22,545 nt of DNA from a virus (taxonomy: Duplodnaviria > Heunggongvirae > Uroviricota > Caudoviricetes). The position numbers were made by a program, and so were the translations under genes. The notes below the pieces were generated by a model. That model saw only the letters and a list, made by a program, of their open reading frames with translations, was not told the origin of the DNA and did not search any database. The DNA lies in the IMG/VR virus record IMGVR_UViG_2778261065_000029, positions 1 to 22,545 of that record, one strand, 5' to 3'. Within the stretch, counting starts at the first letter, position 1. Every line of letters starts with the position of its first letter. This document shows positions 1 to 17,348 of this stretch, piece after piece.

Positions 1-1251
1 GTGCTTACCGATACAAAATTAAAAAACCTCAAGCCGCAGGACAAACTGTACAAGGTCTCCGATCGTGACGGGCTGTATGTAGCTGTGCTTACGTCAGGCA
101 CGGTCTCGTTTCGCTATGACTACCGTATCAACGGTCGCCGCGAAACACTGGTAATCGGGCAGTATGGGCGTGACGGTATCAGCCTGGCAGAAGCGCGAGA
201 AGAACTGATTGCTGCAAAGAAGCTGCTTAAAGCAGGCCAGTCGCCGGCTGCGGCTAAACGTGACGGTATCAAAAAGATTCGTGGTGCCGAGACGTTTGCG
301 GTACATACCGACAGTTATATGAAACACGTCATCCTGGCTGACAGTACCCGCGCAATGAAGCAGGCGGTGATCGACCGTGACATACTTCCGGTTCTTGGCA
401 ACAAAATGATGGCTGAAATTACCACATCGATGGTTCGTGATTTGTGTGACCGGATTGTCGAACGCGGTGGTCGGGCAACAGCAGTACAGGCCAGGGAGAT
501 CATCAGCAGCGTATACCGTCACGCCAATGACCGTGGTCATGGTTTGTTTAATCCTGCGGCTGACATTAAACCTTCGTCTATCGCCATATTTAAACCACGA
601 GAGCGAACACTGACACCAGAAGAAATTGGCCTGTTCTTCCGCACGCTGGATGCCATTGGTGCTATGGGCACTATGAAAATGGCTTTAAAGCTGGTGCTTA
701 TCACTATGGTTCGTAAAGGCGAATTCACCAATGCAACGTGGGATGAAATAGATTTTAAAAAATGGACATGGACAATTCCTTCAGACCGCATGAAGGGAAG
801 CCGGGCGCACGTTATTTACCTGCCTAAACAGGCACAGGATATATTGGTTGGGTTGCAGATGTGCGCTGGTGGAAGTGAATATCTGGTTCCTGGTCGTTAC
901 AATTTCCGGAAGCCATTATCTAATGCCGCGCTGAACTCTCTGATCGACAGAACGGTGAAAATAATAAATGAAGATGGTGAGCATATTCAGGGCTTCACCG
1001 TACACGATATGCGCCGTACAGCCAGTACGTTGTTGCATGAGGCTGGTTATCCTTCAGACTGGATTGAAAAGGCTCTGGCACATGAGCAGAAAGGTGTGCG
1101 CGCCGTATATAACAAAGCGGAATACGCCAGACAGCGCGCCTACATGTTGCAGCAGTGGGCCGATATGATTGATTCCTGGATTAACGGGGAGCATACGGAT
1201 CTGATTCCGTTCTCCCCGTCGAAGTTTGAGAAGTGGATGGCGGGGGAATAA
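1..1251 (+). CDS. int: Tyrosine recombinase / phage integrase (P4-like family); 5' end may be cut by the window edge
   Basis: 416-aa ORF starting at window position 1 (GTG). N-terminal KLKNLKPQDKLYKVSDRDGLY arm-type segment and C-terminal catalytic-region residues (HDMRRTAST, LAHE, VRAVYNKAEY with terminal Tyr) typical of tyrosine integrases. Family call from memory. Confidence 0.85.
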   Translation: MLTDTKLKNLKPQDKLYKVSDRDGLYVAVLTSGTVSFRYDYRINGRRETLVIGQYGRDGISLAEAREELIAAKKLLKAGQSPAAAKRDGIKKIRGAETFAVHTDSYMKHVILADSTRAMKQAVIDRDILPVLGNKMMAEITTSMVRDLCDRIVERGGRATAVQAREIISSVYRHANDRGHGLFNPAADIKPSSIAIFKPRERTLTPEEIGLFFRTLDAIGAMGTMKMALKLVLITMVRKGEFTNATWDEIDFKKWTWTIPSDRMKGSRAHVIYLPKQAQDILVGLQMCAGGSEYLVPGRYNFRKPLSNAALNSLIDRTVKIINEDGEHIQGFTVHDMRRTASTLLHEAGYPSDWIEKALAHEQKGVRAVYNKAEYARQRAYMLQQWADMIDSWINGEHTDLIPFSPSKFEKWMAGE

Positions 1252-6010: not shown

Positions 6011-6025
6011 TTACCGTTGAGGTAA
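6011..6025. promoter_or_regulatory. Operator-like palindrome TTACC-GTTGA-GGTAA (PL-like region)
   Basis: Perfect 5-bp inverted half-sites with a 5-bp spacer; one of nine copies of the same motif in intergenic regions. Confidence 0.5.
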
Positions 6026-6072: not shown

Positions 6073-6087
6073 TTACCCGTTAGGTAA
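6073..6087. promoter_or_regulatory. Operator-like palindrome TTACC-CGTTA-GGTAA
   Basis: Second motif copy, upstream of the candidate PL -35 element. Confidence 0.5.
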
Positions 6088-6144: not shown

Positions 6145-6729
6145 TTATTGTTTGTTTTTTTCGTTCTGGTTGATGACAAATTCAATGTAACTTTCGATCT
6201 TTGCCTTCTCTGTTTCAGGTAACAATGCGTAGCGCGAGCGGTCATAGTTGATAGTTGCAGGGTCATGCGGATGAATCAGTAGTTCATATCCGTGACGCCC
6301 GAATGCAGATGCAACATTCTCCAGGGTGGAAATGGAAACGCTGACCTCATTGTTTAACAGGCGGCTGATTGTCACCTGGGCGACGCCGGATGCGCGGTGA
6401 AGTTTTCCCTGTGTTGAAAGGTCGCGGCTTTCGCTCATCCAGCGTTCCAGGTTGTGAGCCGCCAGCTGACCAATGTCGCTTGGGCCGACAGGCTGAAAAC
6501 CTTCCTGAGAAAGCGAGCGATCGATATCAAGCCAGTTACGGGGTTTATTGGCGGCAGCTTCAATTTTTCGCGCAACCTGGTCGCCGATAACCTTCTTGCC
6601 AAGAGCCCAGCGGTTTACCAGATTTGCCTGAGTTCCAAGTTTTTCTGCCATCCGCGTCTGAACACCATTGAATTCACGGTCGATCAAGTCGTTGAGATTT
6701 TGCCTGCGGACGTCCTGGATACTTTTCAT
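6145..6729 (-). CDS. CI-like immunity repressor candidate with two HTH motifs and no LexA/S24-type peptidase domain
   Basis: 194-aa ORF divergent from a Cro-like gene across an operator-rich region. HTH-like segments QTRMAEKLGTQANLVNRW and RASGVAQVTISRLLNNEVSVSISTLENVA. No Ala-Gly cleavage site or Ser/Lys dyad context recognisable. Confidence 0.6.
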   Translation of the reverse strand: MKSIQDVRRQNLNDLIDREFNGVQTRMAEKLGTQANLVNRWALGKKVIGDQVARKIEAAANKPRNWLDIDRSLSQEGFQPVGPSDIGQLAAHNLERWMSESRDLSTQGKLHRASGVAQVTISRLLNNEVSVSISTLENVASAFGRHGYELLIHPHDPATINYDRSRYALLPETEKAKIESYIEFVINQNEKNKQ

Positions 6730-6784: not shown

Positions 6785-6799
6785 TTACCCAACAGGTAA
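6785..6799. promoter_or_regulatory. Operator-like palindrome TTACC-CAACA-GGTAA (immunity region, site A)
   Basis: Perfect half-sites in the repressor/cro intergenic region. Confidence 0.5.
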
Positions 6800-6822: not shown

Positions 6823-6858
6823 TTGATTTTTGTTACCTTATGGGTGAATATTTATTAT
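6823..6858 (+). promoter_or_regulatory. Candidate PR-like promoter for the Cro-like gene
   Basis: -35-like TTGTTA (6830-6835) and -10-like TATTAT (6853-6858) with 17-bp spacing; alternative TTGATT/GAATAT pair. By-eye prediction only. Confidence 0.3.
6833..6847. promoter_or_regulatory. Degenerate operator copy TTACC-TTATG-GGTgA (immunity region, site C), overlapping the candidate PR spacer
   Basis: Lies between candidate -35 TTGTTA (6830-6835) and -10 TATTAT (6853-6858) elements. Confidence 0.4.
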
Positions 6859-7169: not shown

Positions 7170-7184
7170 GTACCTTAAAGGTAA
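7170..7184. promoter_or_regulatory. Operator-like palindrome gTACC-TTAAA-GGTAA upstream of the replication genes
   Basis: Motif copy placed right after the Cro terminator and before the next operon. Confidence 0.45.
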
Positions 7185-9091: not shown

Positions 9092-9106
9092 TTACCTATA
9101 AGGTAA
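9092..9106. promoter_or_regulatory. Operator-like palindrome TTACC-TATAA-GGTAA
   Basis: Perfect copy upstream of the DUF1064 operon. Confidence 0.5.
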
Positions 9107-9153: not shown

Positions 9154-9168
9154 TTACCTCAGAGGTAA
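9154..9168. promoter_or_regulatory. Operator-like palindrome TTACC-TCAGA-GGTAA overlapping the ribosome-binding site of the next gene
   Basis: Perfect copy ending 3 nt before ATG 9172; its GAGGT half doubles as the Shine-Dalgarno sequence. Confidence 0.5.
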
Positions 9169-12099: not shown

Positions 12100-12140
12100 G
12101 AGTAGATTATGCATGATGAATTTGATGGATTTTGAATACT

Positions 12141-12166
12141 GCCGCCAACTATGGCGGCTTTATTTT
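12141..12166 (+). terminator. Intrinsic terminator upstream of the terminase genes
   Basis: Hairpin GCCGCCA-ACTA-TGGCGGC followed by TTTATTTT. Confidence 0.55.
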
Positions 12167-12170
12167 GCAT

Positions 12171-12202
12171 GGTACTATTACCACAACGGTAACTATTACC
12201 AC
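12171..12202. repeat. Direct repeat GGTA(A)CTATTACCAC x2 immediately upstream of the terminase small-subunit start
   Basis: GGTACTATTACCAC (12171-12184) and GGTAACTATTACCAC (12188-12202). The second contains GGTAA-N3-TTACC, the operator half-sites in inverted order. Confidence 0.45.
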
Positions 12203-12209
12203 GGTGGTT

Positions 12210-12806
12210 ATGATGCCTGCTGAACCTAAAACCTATAAACGCAAATCAACGCAATTTAAGCCGCTCACAGCAATGCAGGAGGCTTATTGCCAGTCATACA
12301 TCAAAACGCCTGAAAACCAGACTCAGGCAGCGATTAACGCAGGATTCTCCCCAAACACAGCGGCAGTTAAAGCCAGTGTCATGATGCGCGATGAACGCAT
12401 TCAGAAACGGATTGCCGAGTTGATGGAGGAGCGCAACAAACGAATGCGCGTCAGTGCTGATTACGTTCTCATGCGCCTGGTGGAGATCGACCAGATGGAC
12501 GTGATCGACATCCTCAACGACGATGGGAGCCTTAAACCAATCCGTGAGTGGCCGAAAATCTGGCGCACTACGCTTAGTGGCTTTGATCTGTCGTCGACCA
12601 TCATGAACATGAACGAGGATTCGATAGAGACAATCCTCAAAAAAATTAAATGGCCTGACAAGGTGAAGAACCTTGAGCTGATTGGTAAGCATGTTGATGT
12701 CAACGCGTTCAAAGAACGTCTGGATGTTAATGTGAATGTGACAATTGCTGATCGCATAGCAGCAGCCAGGAAGCGACTCAAAGAACGTCAGGATGGTAAT
12801 CAGTGA
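12210..12806 (+). CDS. Terminase small subunit (Terminase_2-like)
   Basis: Pattern LTAMQEAYCQSYIKTPENQTQAAINAGFSPNTAAVKASVMMRDERIQKRI is typical of small terminase DNA-binding domains. Start placed at ATG 12210 (GGTGG upstream), not the track's 12132 extension. Confidence 0.7.
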   Translation: MMPAEPKTYKRKSTQFKPLTAMQEAYCQSYIKTPENQTQAAINAGFSPNTAAVKASVMMRDERIQKRIAELMEERNKRMRVSADYVLMRLVEIDQMDVIDILNDDGSLKPIREWPKIWRTTLSGFDLSSTIMNMNEDSIETILKKIKWPDKVKNLELIGKHVDVNAFKERLDVNVNVTIADRIAAARKRLKERQDGNQ

Positions 12807-14278
12807 CAGATACAGCGTTATCTCCTGAAGAGCAGTTGATCGAGGATATTGCAGGGTTCACTCACGATCCGCTTGGCTATGCCCTCTATGCGTTCCCGTG
12901 GGGGGAAGAAGGGACTGAACTGGCACATGCTACCGGCCCACGTCAGTGGCAGGCTGATGCGTTCCGAGAGATACGTGATCACCTGCAGAATCCAGCGACG
13001 CGCTATCAGCCGCTTATGCTGGCACGCGCTTCTGGTCACGGTATTGGTAAATCCGCATTCATCTCAATGCTGATCAACTGGGGCATGTCCACTTGCGAGG
13101 ATTGTAAGGTCGTGGTGACCGCCAACACCGACAACCAGCTACGAACGAAGACCTGGCCGGAAATTATCAAGTGGTCGAACCTTGCTATCACGAAAGACTG
13201 GTTTACCTGTACCGCTACCGCGATGTACAGCAATGATCCTGGGCACGACAAGCGGTGGCGAGCTGACGCAATCCCCTGGTCTGAGCACAACACTGAGGCA
13301 TTCGCCGGACTACACAACGAGCGCAAACGCATCATCGTGGTATTCGATGAAGCGTCGAACATTGCGGATCTGGTGTGGGAAGTTGCTGAGGGTGCGCTTA
13401 CGGACGAAGACACTGAGATTATCTGGGTGGCGTTCGGAAACCCTACACGTAACACCGGGCGTTTCCGCGAATGTTTCCGCAAATATAAACACCGCTGGAA
13501 AACTGCGCAGATTGACAGCCGGACGGTGGAAGGCACTAACAAACAGCAGTTGCAGAAATGGGTTGATGACTACGGGGAAGACAGCGACTTCGTTAAAATC
13601 CGTGTGCGCGGCATATTCCCGGATGCATCTGAATTGCAGTTTATCCCTACCGGACTTACTGACGAGGCAATGAAACGGGTGGTAACCGCTGCGCAGGTTG
13701 CACATGCTCCGGTGATAATCGGCGTTGACCCGGCATACTCCGGCGTTGATGACGCTGTGATATACCTGCGGCAGGGGCTGCATAGTAAGGTGCTGTGGAC
13801 CGGCAACAAGACCACTGATGATCTGATTATGGCGAAGCGTATCGCTGACTTTGAAGACCAGTATCAGGCTGACGCGGTGTTCATCGACTTCGGTTACGGT
13901 ACCGGGCTGAAGTCAATCGGTGACGGTTGGGGGCGCACATGGCAACTTGTTCCGTTCGGTGGCGCGTCTACTGACCCGCAGATGCTCAACAAGCGTGGGG
14001 AGATGTTCAACTCATGCAAGACATGGCTGAGGCTGGGCGGCATGCTGGATGACCAGGAAACAGCGGACGACCTGTCGGCGGCAGAGTACAAAGTTCGAGT
14101 GGACGGTAAAATCGTTATCGAACCGAAGGAAGATATCAAGGAGCGGCTTGGGCGTTCGCCGGGTAAAGGCGATGCGCTACTGCTGACGTTTGCGTTCCCT
14201 GTGTCTAAGCGTCTGCGAATTCCCGGGCAGCAGAACCAGCAAGGCAAGGCCATTACAGATTACGATCCCTATGCTTAA
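12803..14278 (+). CDS. Terminase large subunit (ATPase plus nuclease)
   Basis: 491-aa ORF with Walker A-like ARASGHGIGKS, a Walker B-like IIVVFDEAS, and C-terminal acidic nuclease-type motifs (VIIGVDPAYSGVDD, DAVFIDFGYG). GTG start overlaps the small-subunit stop (GTGA). Confidence 0.85.
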   Translation: MTDTALSPEEQLIEDIAGFTHDPLGYALYAFPWGEEGTELAHATGPRQWQADAFREIRDHLQNPATRYQPLMLARASGHGIGKSAFISMLINWGMSTCEDCKVVVTANTDNQLRTKTWPEIIKWSNLAITKDWFTCTATAMYSNDPGHDKRWRADAIPWSEHNTEAFAGLHNERKRIIVVFDEASNIADLVWEVAEGALTDEDTEIIWVAFGNPTRNTGRFRECFRKYKHRWKTAQIDSRTVEGTNKQQLQKWVDDYGEDSDFVKIRVRGIFPDASELQFIPTGLTDEAMKRVVTAAQVAHAPVIIGVDPAYSGVDDAVIYLRQGLHSKVLWTGNKTTDDLIMAKRIADFEDQYQADAVFIDFGYGTGLKSIGDGWGRTWQLVPFGGASTDPQMLNKRGEMFNSCKTWLRLGGMLDDQETADDLSAAEYKVRVDGKIVIEPKEDIKERLGRSPGKGDALLLTFAFPVSKRLRIPGQQNQQGKAITDYDPYA

Positions 14279-14328
14279 TCCGTTAGCGGGGATAATGACG
14301 GAGATATCCTCTGGTGAGGATAAAACAA

Positions 14329-14348
14329 AGCCAGCTCATCGGCTGGCT
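14329..14348. terminator. Bidirectional terminator between the convergent terminase large subunit and the minus-strand ORF
   Basis: Hairpin AGCCAGC-TCATCG-GCTGGCT with T-rich sequence on both flanks (GTTTGT on plus, CTTTGTTTTAT on minus). Confidence 0.5.
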
Positions 14349-14352
14349 GTTT

Positions 14353-14364
14353 GTGACATGTCAC
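14353..14364. repeat. Perfect 12-bp palindrome GTGACATGTCAC (copy 2)
   Basis: Identical to the copy at 12088-12099; lies between the stop of the minus-strand ORF and the terminator hairpin. Confidence 0.6.
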
Positions 14365-14368
14365 GGTG

Positions 14369-14740
14369 TTATTGCTCGCTTAACTTCTGCTTCAGCAAGT
14401 AACCTTCAAGCATCCAGATTTTGTTTACAGCATTCTGCCGGGCAATCTTCCGACCAATTTCCGCATCAAAGTTTTCCGGGCTTGCACAGGCGCTCTCTCC
14501 GGTGACGGTGAAGCCATTGCGCAGCACCAGAACGCAGAACGTCAGCAGAGAAAGTGATTCGTGCGGCTGGTAGTTTACCTCTCCGCCAGTATGTTTCGCT
14601 TTTATGGCTACGCCAAAGATACCATCTTCTGCTGTGAAATATGCCTCCTGAGCAATAATACTCTCGATATGGTCTGGCGTAACGCGCGGCGCGGCTAAAC
14701 CTTTAGCCTGAATTTCAGATTCAATGTCTTTGTCACTCAT
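14369..14740 (-). CDS. Hypothetical protein (123 aa) in a reverse-oriented cargo locus
   Basis: ORF opposite to the flanking terminase and head genes, with AAGGTGAG ribosome-binding site. Weak, unverified recollection of a Gp49/Gp66-like phage family. Confidence 0.55.
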   Translation of the reverse strand: MSDKDIESEIQAKGLAAPRVTPDHIESIIAQEAYFTAEDGIFGVAIKAKHTGGEVNYQPHESLSLLTFCVLVLRNGFTVTGESACASPENFDAEIGRKIARQNAVNKIWMLEGYLLKQKLSEQ

Positions 14741-14756
14741 AGTCTAATCTCACCTT

Positions 14757-14780
14757 AAAAAAATGCCCGGCGAACCGGGC
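14757..14780 (-). terminator. Terminator/attenuator-like hairpin plus U7-8 tract directly upstream of the ribosome-binding site of the 123-aa ORF
   Basis: Minus strand reads GCCCGG-TTCG-CCGGGC then A, a U7 run and AAGGTGAG...ATG. About 16 nt separate the U-tract from the start codon. Confidence 0.4.
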
Positions 14781-14864
14781 GAACTGGAAGCAATGAGTTA
14801 TGCCTTCCGTGGCTGTACTGGTTTACAGCATGAAGCCATCGCAATGGCGTCCTGCTGTAAAAAG

Positions 14865-14900
14865 GGCGGTGATAGTCCTTCAAGGGAAACCATCACCGCC
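14865..14900 (-). terminator. Possible hairpin/terminator downstream of the tRNA
   Basis: 9-bp inverted repeat GGCGGTGAT...ATCACCGCC with a ~18-nt loop, followed on the minus strand by CTTTTTAC. Confidence 0.25.
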
Positions 14901-14943
14901 AAGCCCCTGGAACTTCTGGCATCACGGTCCTTAGGCGTGATTC

Positions 14944-15020
14944 TGGCGTGGCATGCAGGATTCGAACCTGCGACCGACCGCTTAGAAGGCGGTTGCTCTG
15001 TCCAACTGAGCTAATGCCAC
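14944..15020 (-). tRNA. tRNA-Arg (anticodon UCU), argU-like, with encoded CCA
   Basis: Minus-strand 77-nt sequence GTGGCATTAGCTCAGTTGGACAGAGCAACCGCCTTCTAAGCGGTCGGTCGCAGGTTCGAATCCTGCATGCCACGCCA folds as a cloverleaf: 7-bp acceptor stem GTGGCAT/ATGCCAC, D-arm GCTC/GAGC, anticodon stem ACCGC/GCGGT with loop CUUCUAA, T-arm GCAGG-TTCGAAT-CCTGC. Near-identical to E. coli argU apart from stem substitutions (from memory). Confidence 0.85.
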
Positions 15021-15342
15021 AACGCTGAGAGCACTTAGCCTGTTAAGGCGCCACACTTTGTCGCGGCTCCATAAATGCTCTCATCGTTGCACCCTCGTCT
15101 CTTCCGAGGCGTCACACCGAATCGCCGGGATGGTGAATCCCCGTGCGCGGAATAAAACCGCTCGACTTGCACATTCCGGCTACCTGGTTCGTTTGCCCGA
15201 GCAAGGGAGGGTGCCCATTAAACGTATCCAGACCGCTATCGGCGCATGTGCCATACGCCGTACTGCTCAAAATAAAATCTCACTCCACCTGTTCAATTTA
15301 ACGACAAGCCAGTCAGGTTAATAACAGGAATGCACTCTCTGC

Positions 15343-15357
15343 TTACCTGAAAGGTAA
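15343..15357. promoter_or_regulatory. Operator-like palindrome TTACC-TGAAA-GGTAA upstream of the head-gene operon
   Basis: Perfect copy about 90 bp upstream of the first head-module ORF; GGTAATAATT is repeated again at 15415-15424. Confidence 0.45.
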
Positions 15358-15447
15358 TAATTCGTGCGTTAAATGTCAACTGTCTACGATAAATAAATCA
15401 TATGTGGTTAAATTGGTAATAATTTAATTGCGTACGGAGTCATTGAT

Positions 15448-15654
15448 ATGTGCATGGGTAGCTCACCATCAGTGCCTGCAACACCAGAAGTTCAGGCAGC
15501 ACCACAGGAGCAGGATGCCGCCGTTGTTGATGCCCGCGACGAAGAAACACGTCGCCGTCGCGCTGCTGCTGGTCGTAGTTCTACGCTGCTTACCGGTTCT
15601 CAGGGTGACACATCAACCGCTAATACCAGCGGTAAAACGCTGCTTGGTCAGTAA
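15448..15654 (+). CDS. Hypothetical small protein (68 aa), low-complexity, first gene of the head operon
   Basis: ATG preceded by GGAGTCATTGAT. Ala/Gln/Thr/Arg-rich and likely disordered (MCMGSSPSVPATPEVQAAPQEQD...). Confidence 0.45.
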   Translation: MCMGSSPSVPATPEVQAAPQEQDAAVVDARDEETRRRRAAAGRSSTLLTGSQGDTSTANTSGKTLLGQ

Positions 15655-15668
15655 CCGGAGTCATTGAA

Positions 15669-17348
15669 ATGGCGGAAACAACTAAAGAGCGATTGAACAA
15701 ACAGTTCGCACAACTTGAAAGCGAGCGTCAGTCGTTCGAGCCGCACTGGCGCGAGTTGAGTGATTACATCAACCCGCGTGGTTCCCGCTTTCTGACTTCT
15801 GAGGTCAACCGTAACGATCGACGCAATACACGCATTATTGATTCGACCGGGACTATGGCGGCGCGCACTCTCGCCAGCGGCATGATGTCAGGCATCACAA
15901 GCCCCGCGCGTCCGTGGTTTCGCCTGGCTACGCCAGATCCTGAAATGATGGATTATGGCCCTGTTAAGTTGTGGCTTGAGGCGGTGCAGAACCGCATGAA
16001 CGATATGTTCAATAAGTCGAATCTCTATCAGTCGCTGCCGCAGTTATACGGAAGCCTCGGCACATACAGCACTGGTGCAATGGCGGTACTGGAGGATGAC
16101 GATGACATCATTCGCACAATGCCATTCCCGATAGGCAGTTACTACCTGGCTAACTCACCTCGTGGCAGTGTGGACACCTGTTTTCGCAAGTTCTCTATGA
16201 CTGTTCGTCAGCTTGTTCAGGAGTTCGGGCTAAATAACGTCAGCGAATCCGTAAAAAGCATGTGGGAAAGCGGCACCTACGAGAAGTGGATTGAAGTGAT
16301 GCATTCGGTTTACCCGAACATTGACCGCGATACATCGAAGCTGGATAGCAAGAACAAGCCATTCAAATCGGTTTATTACGAGGTTGGCGGTGATAACGAC
16401 AAGTTGTTGCGTGAGTCAGGATTCGATGAGTTTCCAATTATGGCTCCGCGCTGGGAAGTTAACGGCGAAGATGTTTATGGATCATCATGCCCGGGTATGC
16501 TGGCGCTTGGACCTGTTAAGGCATTGCAGCTTCTCCAGAAGCGCAAGTCGCAGTTGATTGATAAAGCCACCAATCCGCCGATGATTGCTCCGACTTCCCT
16601 CAAGAATCAGCGCGCCTCCCTTCTTCCTGGCGACATCACGTATATCGATCAGATTACTGGTCAGGATGGTTTCAGGCCTGCTTATCTGGTTAACCCCAGT
16701 ACAGCAGATCTGGTGGCAGACATTCAGGACACTCGTCAAATCATTAACAGTGCCTACTTTGTCGATCTGTTCATGATGTTGCAGAACATCAATACCCGTT
16801 CGATGCCTGTTGAAGCGGTGATCGAAATGAAAGAAGAAAAACTTCTGATGTTGGGGCCGGTTCTGGAGCGTCTGAACGACGAATGTCTTAATCCTCTCAT
16901 TGACCGCGCTTTCTCGATGATGGTGCGTAAAAACATGCTGCCGCCCCCGCCTGACGCGATGGAAGGTATGCCCCTGAAGGTCGAATACATTTCCGTCATG
17001 GCTCAGGCGCAGAAGTCTATCGGCCTGTCCAGTCTGGCGTCTACGGTCAACTTCATTGGTCAACTTGCGCAAGCGAAACCAGAAGCTCTCGACAAACTCA
17101 ACGTTGATCAGGCAATCGATGCATTCGCTGATATGTCCGGAGTGTCTCCAACCGTCATTGTTCCGCAGGAACAGGTTGAGCAGGCTCGCCAGCAACGGGC
17201 ACAGCAACAACAGCAGCAACAAATGATGGAGATGGGGATGGCGGCGGCACAGGGTGCCAAGACGCTAAGCGAAGCTAAAACTTCGGATCCGAGTGTTTTG
17301 TCAGCTATGGCGAATGCAGTTAGTGGTCAGGGTGGGCAATCACAATGA
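15669..17348 (+). CDS. Portal (head-to-tail connector) protein, podovirus/T7 gp8-like
   Basis: 559-aa ORF downstream of the terminase module. Q-rich C-terminal tail (QARQQRAQQQQQQQMMEMGMAAAQGA) resembles the T7 gp8 C-terminus as recalled. Ribosome-binding site GGAGTCATTGAA. Confidence 0.75.
   Translation: MAETTKERLNKQFAQLESERQSFEPHWRELSDYINPRGSRFLTSEVNRNDRRNTRIIDSTGTMAARTLASGMMSGITSPARPWFRLATPDPEMMDYGPVKLWLEAVQNRMNDMFNKSNLYQSLPQLYGSLGTYSTGAMAVLEDDDDIIRTMPFPIGSYYLANSPRGSVDTCFRKFSMTVRQLVQEFGLNNVSESVKSMWESGTYEKWIEVMHSVYPNIDRDTSKLDSKNKPFKSVYYEVGGDNDKLLRESGFDEFPIMAPRWEVNGEDVYGSSCPGMLALGPVKALQLLQKRKSQLIDKATNPPMIAPTSLKNQRASLLPGDITYIDQITGQDGFRPAYLVNPSTADLVADIQDTRQIINSAYFVDLFMMLQNINTRSMPVEAVIEMKEEKLLMLGPVLERLNDECLNPLIDRAFSMMVRKNMLPPPPDAMEGMPLKVEYISVMAQAQKSIGLSSLASTVNFIGQLAQAKPEALDKLNVDQAIDAFADMSGVSPTVIVPQEQVEQARQQRAQQQQQQQMMEMGMAAAQGAKTLSEAKTSDPSVLSAMANAVSGQGGQSQ

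Follow-up and report, generated by a model that had tools for sequence, protein, structure and literature searches.

Several prophage-encoded RNAs are associated with tRNAs. ROOL and GOLLD lie beside tRNAs while the c4 RNA of P1 and P7 and the CI RNA of P4 are tRNA-like precursors cut by ribonuclease (RNase) P, and all of these are structured and hundreds of nucleotides (nt) in length. The put RNAs of phage HK022, which bring about processive antitermination by RNA alone, are structured nascent RNAs made shortly after the start of early transcripts under repressor control and ahead of the terminators. We analysed a 22,545 nt stretch of viral DNA (positions 1 to 22,545 of IMG/VR record IMGVR_UViG_2778261065_000029, hereafter the window), which by its sequence is a phiV10/epsilon15-like (Uetakevirus) prophage. 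Between its terL and portal genes lies a minus-strand unit containing a tRNA-Arg(UCU) and an open reading frame (ORF) of 123 amino acids. The stretch upstream of the tRNA, 15021-15342, had been left unexplained in the original prediction, which was made from the letters of the DNA. By our comparisons it makes up the 5′ portion of a conserved, structured RNA that has the tRNA built into it. We establish here the anatomy and conservation of the unit, the covariation of the RNA, the family memberships of the tRNA and the protein, and the overlap of the predicted promoter with a repressor operator (Table 1). The tRNA and the Acb4-type gene are of known kinds and already catalogued; the RNA family is widespread, and we found no annotation of it in the matches examined, no counterpart in Rfam 15 and no mention in the searchable literature. 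We consider it probable that the whole unit is an immediate-early, repressor-controlled accessory operon running leftward between the terL and portal genes.

This RNA resembles ROOL, GOLLD, c4 and P4 CI RNA in prophage origin, size range and linkage to a tRNA or tRNA-like fold. Its hosts and sequence are different, however, and unlike those RNAs it has an identifiable repressor-controlled promoter and a conserved terminator. No Rfam 15 family, including ROOL, GOLLD, C4, tmRNA and YrlA, matched the core in the window at an expectation value (E) ≤ 10. Under permissive settings, applied to the window and to the copy from phage mEp460, the tRNA alone passed, with all other matches at E ≥ 0.013 and far below their gathering scores. 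The invariant strings of the RNA were absent from the searchable literature (full text), and searches on the phiV10 tRNA, the P1 ban operon and antitermination in mEp phages returned nothing relevant.

A 25-nt pattern taken from 15021-15342 recovered 15 loci in ten enterobacterial genera and at least 120 IMG/VR contigs, with 50 clusters below ~94 % identity. RNAalifold predicted 47 consensus pairs from the alignment A3, 15 of them with compensatory changes. Across A3 97.0 % of the cells are paired, compared with 32-46 % in controls with slid partners, and 74 cells are doubly changed as opposed to 10-16 in the slid controls; none of 500 shuffles matched the observed values. Frequent G-U pairs place the RNA on the minus strand of the window. 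Compensation can be followed in individual phages, the otherwise invariant hairpin CCUCG/CGAGG becoming GCCGG/CCGGC in P7 and CCUGG/CCAGG in mEp460 while both retain the GAAGAG loop. The covariance model R1 finds one match in the window, the core on the minus strand (111.4 bits, E = 6e-32), and recovers sequences on which it was not trained, namely mEp460 (108.8 bits), P7 (93.3 bits) and a P1-like contig (107 bits), with zero matches in the host flanks and in the HK022 immunity region. Folded as a single sequence, the predicted window transcript (15345 to 14750) has an energy of -235 kcal/mol, which corresponds to a z-score of -4.5.

The core consensus comprises the hairpin CGGCRUAUGGCACAUGYGCCG, a covarying stem around a variable loop, the motif CCGGAAUGUGCAAG, a covarying 4-bp hairpin with the loop UCACCA and the near-invariant GGUGUGACACCUCGGAAGAGACGAGG; the window itself has the hairpin CGGCGUAUGGCACAUGCGCCG, the same motif and the near-invariant GGUGUGAC(A/G)CCUCGGAAGAGACGAGG. 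The long stem that follows (helix 8 of A3) has 17 pairs, 97.3 % paired and three with compensatory changes, around an insert that measures 40-300 nt in relatives and often contains the T-arm-like GGUUCGAnUCC. Non-coding blocks on either side of the tRNA are kept in relatives with other cargo or without the tRNA. The leader that precedes the core forms a long hairpin in epsilon15, Tyrion and Klebsiella relatives, and the epsilon15 record annotates this hairpin as an RNase III site. A long-range pairing, GCACAU/AUGUGC, suggested by RNAalifold from the alignment A5, was rejected: two natural variants (L092 and L094) disrupt it with no compensating change, and it is the local hairpin that shows covariation.

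Two local features of the RNA may be recorded separately. The near-invariant hairpin CCUCG-GAAGAGA-CGAGG at 15113-15097 on the minus strand has the geometry of an anticodon arm, with a 5-bp stem and a 7-nt loop. This loop includes AGA, which the neighbouring tRNA-Arg(UCU) decodes, and is kept even in P7 and mEp460, where the stem covaries. In the long stem, the 3′ strand (15036-15021) reads UGCUCUUU(C/U) in many relatives and UGCUCUCAG in the window. This resembles the boxA core of rrn and nut sites, UGCUCUUUA; covariation shows the segment to be paired, so the likeness may be a coincidence.

It is highly improbable that the conserved block acts as DNA (a promoter, an integration host factor (IHF) or operator region, a packaging signal) or that it hides a small protein gene. 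IHF and repressor sites are indeed annotated near the locus in the epsilon15 record, mechanical ORFs of 52-87 amino acids occur and RefSeq or GenBank sometimes call hypothetical proteins there. The helices are nevertheless preserved by compensatory changes, with G-U pairs on one strand only, and the same element stands in unrelated positions in the P1 ban operon and the early-left leader of lambdoid phages. The stretch had been described as free of ORFs, which is not literally so as three mechanical ORFs (87, 52 and 52 amino acids) exist. Pfam matches none of these, and the homologues carry frame-breaking insertions or deletions of 1, 2, 5 and 8 nt; a hidden ORF was rejected on these grounds.

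The tRNA occupies a slot which in many relatives holds a different module. This begins with GUGGUGAAU, followed by a hairpin with the loop GGCUGA, 30-150 variable nt, a second hairpin with the loop AGAUCAGCA and a terminal CACCAC. The closing stem and both hairpins covary, and the two loops are complementary (GCUGAU with AUCAGC), pairing at six of six positions in 9 of 14 sequences, so that the modelled architecture is tRNA-like. In the window a real tRNA appears to take the place of this module. Its acceptor stem shares the GUGG start and follows the long stem directly, CGUUG being joined to GUGG. In another phage context, in Phytobacter, ARAGORN finds a tRNA-Ile(aat) ~470 nt downstream of the core (L093 2210-2288, L103 1186-1264), which is a further case of tRNAs travelling with the core RNA.

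The 3′ end of the RNA is marked by the terminator T1, whose stem is followed by CUUUUU and has three G-U pairs on the minus strand only. Thirty distinct variants of T1, from Uetakevirus and lambdoid contexts, are always followed by a U run, and compensatory changes are present at 4 of the 7 consensus pairs. A conserved promoter-proximal start together with a conserved terminator is what would be expected of an RNA gene. Epsilon15 lacks the core and the tRNA together with the 5′ arm of T1 (L003 2660-2700 compared with SPN9TCW) while the second terminator T2 and the cargo remain. From its sequence this phage looks like a deletion derivative, formed by recombination between a TTCCCTTGATGCT repeat in the core region and a second copy in the T1 loop.

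Table 1 Features of the minus-strand unit, in order of predicted transcription, and of its neighbours (window coordinates)
Feature	Position	Strand	Evidence or remark
Predicted early promoter, -35 TTGACA 15379-15374, -10 TACCTT 15356-15351	15351-15386	-	Promoter scan
Alternative promoter elements	TAGACA 15386-15381 with AATTAT 15362-15357	-	
Repressor operator palindrome TTACCTGAAAGGTAA	15343-15357		Motif count, epsilon15 annotation
Lineage-specific 5′ leader between promoter and core	15264-15342	-	Variable among relatives
Conserved structured RNA core, ~170 nt	15091-15263	-	Covariance model R1, alignment A3
Long closing stem, 15090-15074 paired with 15036-15021, around a 37-nt variable insert	15021-15090	-	A3 helix 8
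tRNA-Arg(UCU) with encoded CCA, filling the module slot of the RNA	14944-15020	-	ARAGORN and Rfam
Spacer hairpin CACGCCUAAGGACCGUG	14922-14939	-	Kept in relatives with and without tRNA
T1, intrinsic terminator at the RNA 3′ end; stem 14900-14865 (14 bp), U run 14863-14859	14853-14902	-	Terminator scan
40-nt palindromic hairpin between T1 and T2	14861-14822	-	Self-match on opposite strand
T2, GCCCGGUUCGCCGGGC and U7, right cargo boundary; stem 14780-14765, T7 14763-14757	14780-14757	-	Terminator scan
Shine-Dalgarno AAGGUGAG of the cargo gene	14756-14749	-	
Cargo ORF, 123-amino-acid Acb4-family (PF13876) protein, ATG start	14369-14740	-	Pfam, PDB 9e4w match
Bidirectional intrinsic terminator shared by terL and cargo ORF, left cargo boundary	14329-14348	both	Terminator scan
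terL	12803-14278	+	Left neighbour of the minus-strand unit
gp3	15448-15654	+	Right neighbour of the minus-strand unit
Portal	15669-17348	+	Right of gp3
Integrase	1-1251		

A blastn search with the core matched 83 phage records. These include Uetakeviruses, the lambdoid phages mEp460, cdtI and Shiga toxin phages of the Stx2c, Stx2a and Stx2k types, and P1, P7, D6, SJ46 and RCS47. Of 5426 complete E. coli genomes 1836 carry the RNA, in 2467 copies of which 554 are on plasmids, and none of the 40 matches listed has an annotated feature beneath it. In P7 the RNA falls within the C1-controlled ban operon, between tRNA-Ile and ban. The core of P1 and P7 (P7: L226 3408-3673) begins 21 nt past the tRNA-Ile and ends ~100 nt before ban; these copies have no long stem, module or T1 and are not annotated in these records. 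In a P1-like contig the C1 operator ATTGCTCTAATAAATTT precedes the core by ~50 nt. The RNA of mEp460 and Stx2a_WGPS2 lies within a ~780-nt gap that directly follows a CI-like repressor gene where the early-left operon starts, and no N gene is annotated in this gap. Judged by these neighbourhoods, the contexts of the RNA appear always to be early and repressor-controlled.

The window follows the same pattern. Within 14000-15800 the scan found only one sigma-70-like site on the minus strand (15386-15357), and it overlaps an operator; both TTGACA (ATTGAC) and the operator are invariant across six relatives. The operator motif TTACC-N5-GGTAA has 10 copies in the window as against 0.34 expected, a count reached in none of 100 shuffles. 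These lie at 6011-6025, 6073-6087, 6785-6799, 6833-6847, 7170-7184, 9092-9106, 9154-9168, 12178-12192, 12196-12210 and 15343-15357; they flank the gene of the helix-turn-helix repressor (6145-6729) and also stand in front of terS, gp3 and genes of the replication region. In the epsilon15 record this motif is labelled as binding sites of the repressor, among them one at the position equivalent to 15343-15357. At the PL-like promoter of the window (6053-6025, TTGACA-17-AATTAT) the -10 abuts an operator, and the same junction, AATTAT directly followed by TACC, recurs at 15343-15386. As in P1, many scattered promoters, those of structural genes among them, seem to be under a single repressor. No promoter was found between T1 and T2 or between T2 and the ORF, either by scan or by eye, and the latter interval has no room for one. 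Because the only promoter-like site overlaps an operator, none fits between T2 and the ORF and the recognisable cargo families act in lytic growth, we infer that the unit is repressed in the lysogen and predict that it fires at once on infection or induction. This is also when a phage needs its anti-defence proteins.

These positions bear directly on what the core may do. It could be a cis-acting processive antitermination element with the logic of HK022 put, helping polymerase past T1 and T2, past the early-left terminators of lambdoid phages and perhaps past Rho on a long untranslated leader. The RNA is always sense-oriented, downstream of repressor-controlled early promoters and upstream of protein genes, in lambdoid carriers it fills the ~780-nt gap that would be the place of N and nutL, and the core is followed by one or two terminator-like hairpins. 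Its near-invariant 26-nt segment suggests contact with a conserved host machine, and the epsilon15 deletion that removed the core also destroyed T1. The likeness to put does not extend to sequence or model: neither putL nor putR shows similarity to the core, and the only match between HK022 and the core by blastn and nhmmer is one of 14 nt away from the put regions. The core is also much larger (~170 nt compared with ~70 nt), is present as one copy per genome rather than as a putL and putR pair, and alone has tRNA-like modules, superfluous for antitermination, and its own terminator, which resembles the 3′ end of an RNA gene. Moreover epsilon15 keeps T2 and the cargo without the core, and P7 has no terminator between the core and ban. 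We therefore hold a cis-acting role to be rather doubtful. With slightly less than even confidence we lean towards a stable trans-acting early RNA; that the core does something else has some chance, distinctly short of even. Tentatively, the core, the swappable tRNA or tRNA-like module and the terminator may together form an undescribed class of immediate-early phage RNA common to P1-like, N-less lambdoid and Stx, and epsilon15-like phages. Such a class might provide read-through control by RNA only, or RNA-based host takeover or counter-defence, for example by tying up a conserved host or immune component as a decoy or sponge would, its variable inserts and modules being evolving 'specificity' parts.

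The original prediction of a reverse-oriented, terminator-bounded accessory unit between terminase and portal is confirmed, with the tRNA, the 123-amino-acid ORF and the shared terminator on the minus strand. The hairpin expected between the tRNA and the ORF is also present, as T2, with a G+C stem followed by T7; two further minus-strand hairpins had been overlooked. T2 is directly upstream of the cargo Shine-Dalgarno and ends 16 nt before the ATG. Its equivalent is annotated as a rho-independent terminator in epsilon15, and phiV10 annotates the equivalent of the 14348-14329 terminator on the plus strand. Between T1 and T2, the 40-nt palindrome appears in both the minimum-free-energy and centroid folds and is confined to the Uetakevirus context. 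The T1-T2 segment (14858-14757, minus strand) has the shape of an Hfq-type small RNA, with a long hairpin, a single-stranded stretch and a G+C hairpin followed by U7; it is found in Uetakevirus relatives only and its Rfam matches are weak (RyhB, E = 2.5).

We surveyed the cargo slot in 80 IMG/VR loci with essentially identical gp3 (79 at 100 % and one at 99 %). In these, identity is mostly 94-100 % over the tRNA, the non-coding blocks beside it and the promoter region, while the interval from the terL terminator to T2 varies in length between 129 nt (empty) and ~1300 nt. Forty loci hold Acb4 subtypes and two hold Tad2-like proteins (PF11195, E = 3e-24). Families without an assignment include one of 126-140 amino acids (15 loci) and a 200-300-amino-acid coiled-coil protein with two transmembrane segments (~17 loci). 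A 115-amino-acid repeat-rich protein (phrog_3163) and a 113-amino-acid protein were also found, and the slot is empty in 5 of the 80. A Klebsiella relative carries a 173-amino-acid Tad2-like protein plus the tRNA. Cargo thus appears to be exchanged between the flanking terminators with the RNA, the tRNA and the promoter held constant. PADLOC gave no specific match for the cargo proteins, a 272-amino-acid protein being matched in coiled-coil regions only. Two of the recognisable families, Acb4 and Tad2-like, are known anti-defence sponges.

The profile search that had been proposed for the 123-amino-acid ORF places it in Pfam PF13876 ('Phage_gp49_66'; E = 2.4e-35, 121.3 bits against a gathering cut-off of 27, profile positions 1-82 of 82). 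RefSeq names the protein 'Gp49 family protein'. The only relative of solved structure that we found is 'anti-CBASS 4 (Acb4)' from SPO1 (PDB 9e4w_A), a counter to the cyclic-oligonucleotide-based antiphage signalling system (CBASS), matched at E = 0.0068 when the single sequence is used and at 1.6e-6 when a profile of 11 sequences is used. PF13876 has been equated with the Acb4 family of cyclic-dinucleotide sponges in two papers (including Chang et al., bioRxiv 10.1101/2024.12.30.630793), and the orthologues from phiV10 (Q287B5) and epsilon15 are both in Table S3 of that study; Q287B5 differs from the window protein at 2 amino acids. Membership of the Acb4 family, as judged from these matches, is solid and already catalogued. 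SPO1 Acb4 is a tetramer holding four molecules of 3′3′-cyclic GMP-AMP (3′3′-cGAMP; PDB 9E4W), which was bound by 8 of 8 Acb4 homologues assayed, and homologues from phages of Gram-negative hosts also bind 3′3′-c-di-AMP (cAA) (bioRxiv 10.1101/2024.12.30.630793). The activity of SPO1 Acb4 appears early in infection. Like the family at large, the window protein is small, phage-encoded, matched over the full length of the model and predicted to be early; it differs from SPO1 Acb4 in its ~60-residue N-terminal extension.

The tRNA was predicted to be phage-borne, and it is well formed. ARAGORN, run as had been suggested, reports a single tRNA in the window, tRNA-Arg(tct) at the position in Table 1, which scores 72.2 bits with Rfam RF00005 (gathering score 29) and has four stems that are fully Watson-Crick paired. 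Already annotated in RefSeq and several phage records, it shares its canonical cloverleaf, UCU anticodon and A20 with the argU-like tRNAs of phiV10-type, SPN1S-type and Stx phages. The window tRNA is not a free-standing gene; it sits inside a larger conserved RNA and has the GUGG acceptor start of the tRNA-like module that it replaces. Its identity to E. coli argU is 83 %, with differences at 13 of 77 positions (the argU reference agrees with 5353 records at ≥ 99 % identity, and all of the matches listed agree at 100 %). The claim that it differs from argU only in stems holds for ten of the differences, which are compensatory changes in the acceptor and anticodon stems; the remaining three fall in the D loop (one) and the variable loop (two). 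Identical to argU are the anticodon loop (CUUCUAA), the D stem, the T arm, the discriminator base and the CCA. The D loop AGUUGGACA retains the A aligned with argU A20. The identity elements for arginyl-tRNA synthetase, A20, C35 and U/G36, are all present, as is the encoded 3′ CCA.

Codon usage was compared between 47 annotated prophage genes and 29 flanking host genes. AGA and AGG together amount to 10.4 per 1000 codons in the prophage (AGA 5.99, AGG 4.44) and 1.1 in the host (AGA 1.02, AGG 0.09), giving an odds ratio of 9.4 (Fisher p = 7e-22). The tRNA could be useful for these codons of the phage.

Taken together as an operon, the parts suggest the following course of events. When repressor is absent, in a fresh infection or on induction, RNA polymerase would start at ~15345 on the minus strand and make a ~480-nt structured non-coding RNA composed of the leader, the core, the long stem, the tRNA, the spacer hairpin and T1. 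This would be a precursor from which RNase P and other host RNases may release the tRNA, helping to decode AGA (less certainly AGG) codons of the phage, and processing may leave a stable core RNA acting early in infection. Polymerases passing T1 and T2 would reach the sole protein gene, with the two terminators metering read-through, and the Acb4-family tetramers would, by family precedent, sequester CBASS cyclic dinucleotides and blunt abortive-infection immunity.

Several points weigh against this picture. The transcript start, its timing, processing and read-through, and ligand binding are all inferred from sequence. The -10 element is weak whether taken as TACCTT or AATTAT, and the operator could act instead, or also, on a divergent gp3-portal promoter; the epsilon15 record puts similar operators before terS and the tailspike gene. 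T2, a strong terminator, ends only 16 nt ahead of the cargo ATG and leaves it uncertain how strongly the cargo gene would be expressed. As to ligand specificity, the window protein keeps three of the ten ligand contacts of SPO1 Acb4 (F48, F62, I66) and seven are not shared, K36, E49, V56, Y57, N63 and T70 being changed and K81 lying outside the alignment. An AlphaFold2 model of the protein from its single sequence was unusable (predicted local distance difference test score 44.9). Because epsilon15 is viable without the core, the tRNA and half of T1, the RNA is dispensable for laboratory growth. The tRNA-less epsilon15 also has AGA at 4.38 and AGG at 4.06 per 1000 codons (8.4 together), and since this is nearly equal to the load of the window the bias is a property of the lineage and not a result of carrying the tRNA. 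The enrichment of AGA and AGG stands while its proposed link to codon supply is weakened. Furthermore, a tRNA(UCU) reads AGA well and AGG less well.

The codon data also enter into the proposal that the unit is an autonomous moron expressed from the prophage, the tRNA serving rare AGA and AGG codons and the small protein benefiting the lysogen. As in morons and accessory hot-spots, a variable gene bracketed by terminators lies in reverse orientation among co-directional, conserved late genes and is variably present in relatives, and AGA and AGG are 9.4-fold enriched over the flanking host genes. That part of the original prediction is supported; the independent expression it implied is not supported. 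Morons differ in that the window cargo has no adjacent promoter and is predicted to rely on an operator-controlled promoter ~600 nt upstream and on read-through. The sole promoter-like site overlaps an operator invariant in relatives, there is no room for another between T2 and the ORF, the Acb4 and Tad2 families serve the phage in lytic growth, and epsilon15 has the same codon bias without the tRNA. A lysogen-expressed moron is on these grounds decidedly unlikely.

Alternatively, the tRNA and the tRNA-like modules may be counter-defence RNAs that replace, or act as decoys for, host tRNAs attacked by anticodon nucleases. The tRNA is located in a predicted early operon with anti-defence protein cargo, the stems of the tRNA differ from argU while the ribosome-contacting loops are all the same, related phages hold non-decoding tRNA-like folds in the same slot and the codon bias is independent of the tRNA. 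Work on T5 has reportedly found that phage tRNAs can evade anticodon nucleases. The anticodon loop is that of argU, however, so a loop-directed nuclease would cut the phage tRNA too, and a defence nuclease specific for tRNA-Arg(UCU) was not identified in this analysis. We regard this function as unlikely.

Over the 1.5 kb around the locus the window shares 98.9 % identity with Escherichia phage phiV10 and matches an E. coli chromosome at 100 %. The best-matching genome, NZ_CP169309.1, is near-identical but not identical to the window outside the locus: from the start of the window to the locus the coordinate offset changes by 24 nt, and the stretch compared lacks the final 200 nt of the window. 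In the near-identical record the prophage adjoins guaA, and the window begins at the integrase start codon. The gene order there is integrase, early-left genes, repressor, replication genes, terS and terL, followed by the reverse-strand 'Gp49 family protein' and tRNA-Arg and then gp3, portal, head and tail. The suggestion that the tRNA marks an argU integration site or a mosaic junction is contradicted by this layout, with the integrase (1-1251) beside guaA and the tRNA internal, in the same place in related phages. The tRNA was also rejected as an att site: it is not at a prophage boundary beside the integrase and its position is conserved in free phage genomes. The actual recombination boundaries, as the alignments indicate, are the two terminators bracketing the cargo ORF.

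Two gene calls in this region deserve comment. The records of phiV10 and TL-2011b (phiV10p04, F365_gp24) contain an 83-amino-acid ORF on the plus strand (14763-15014) that lies antisense to the tRNA, T1 and T2; it has no family match and is probably a spurious gene call. The RefSeq-style TTG start of terS at 12132 precedes a plus-strand terminator (12141-12158) and two operators (12178-12210). Since terS of epsilon15 begins just past its operator, the true terS start of the window is probably downstream of 12210.

The terminase-portal region in this phage group is thus a compact early expression platform consisting of an operator, an RNA, two terminators and an exchangeable gene. Because their slot-mates Acb4 and Tad2-like proteins are anti-defence sponges, the cargo families without an assigned role are good candidates for new counter-defence (or exclusion) proteins. 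The strongly covarying ~170-nt core RNA is present in about a third of complete E. coli genomes, in P1 and P7 just upstream of ban and, at the site that N would occupy, in Stx phages. Should it control early transcription or disarm a factor of the host, it would supply a missing part of the early programme of N-less phages, and its role is directly testable in P1 and lambdoid genetics.

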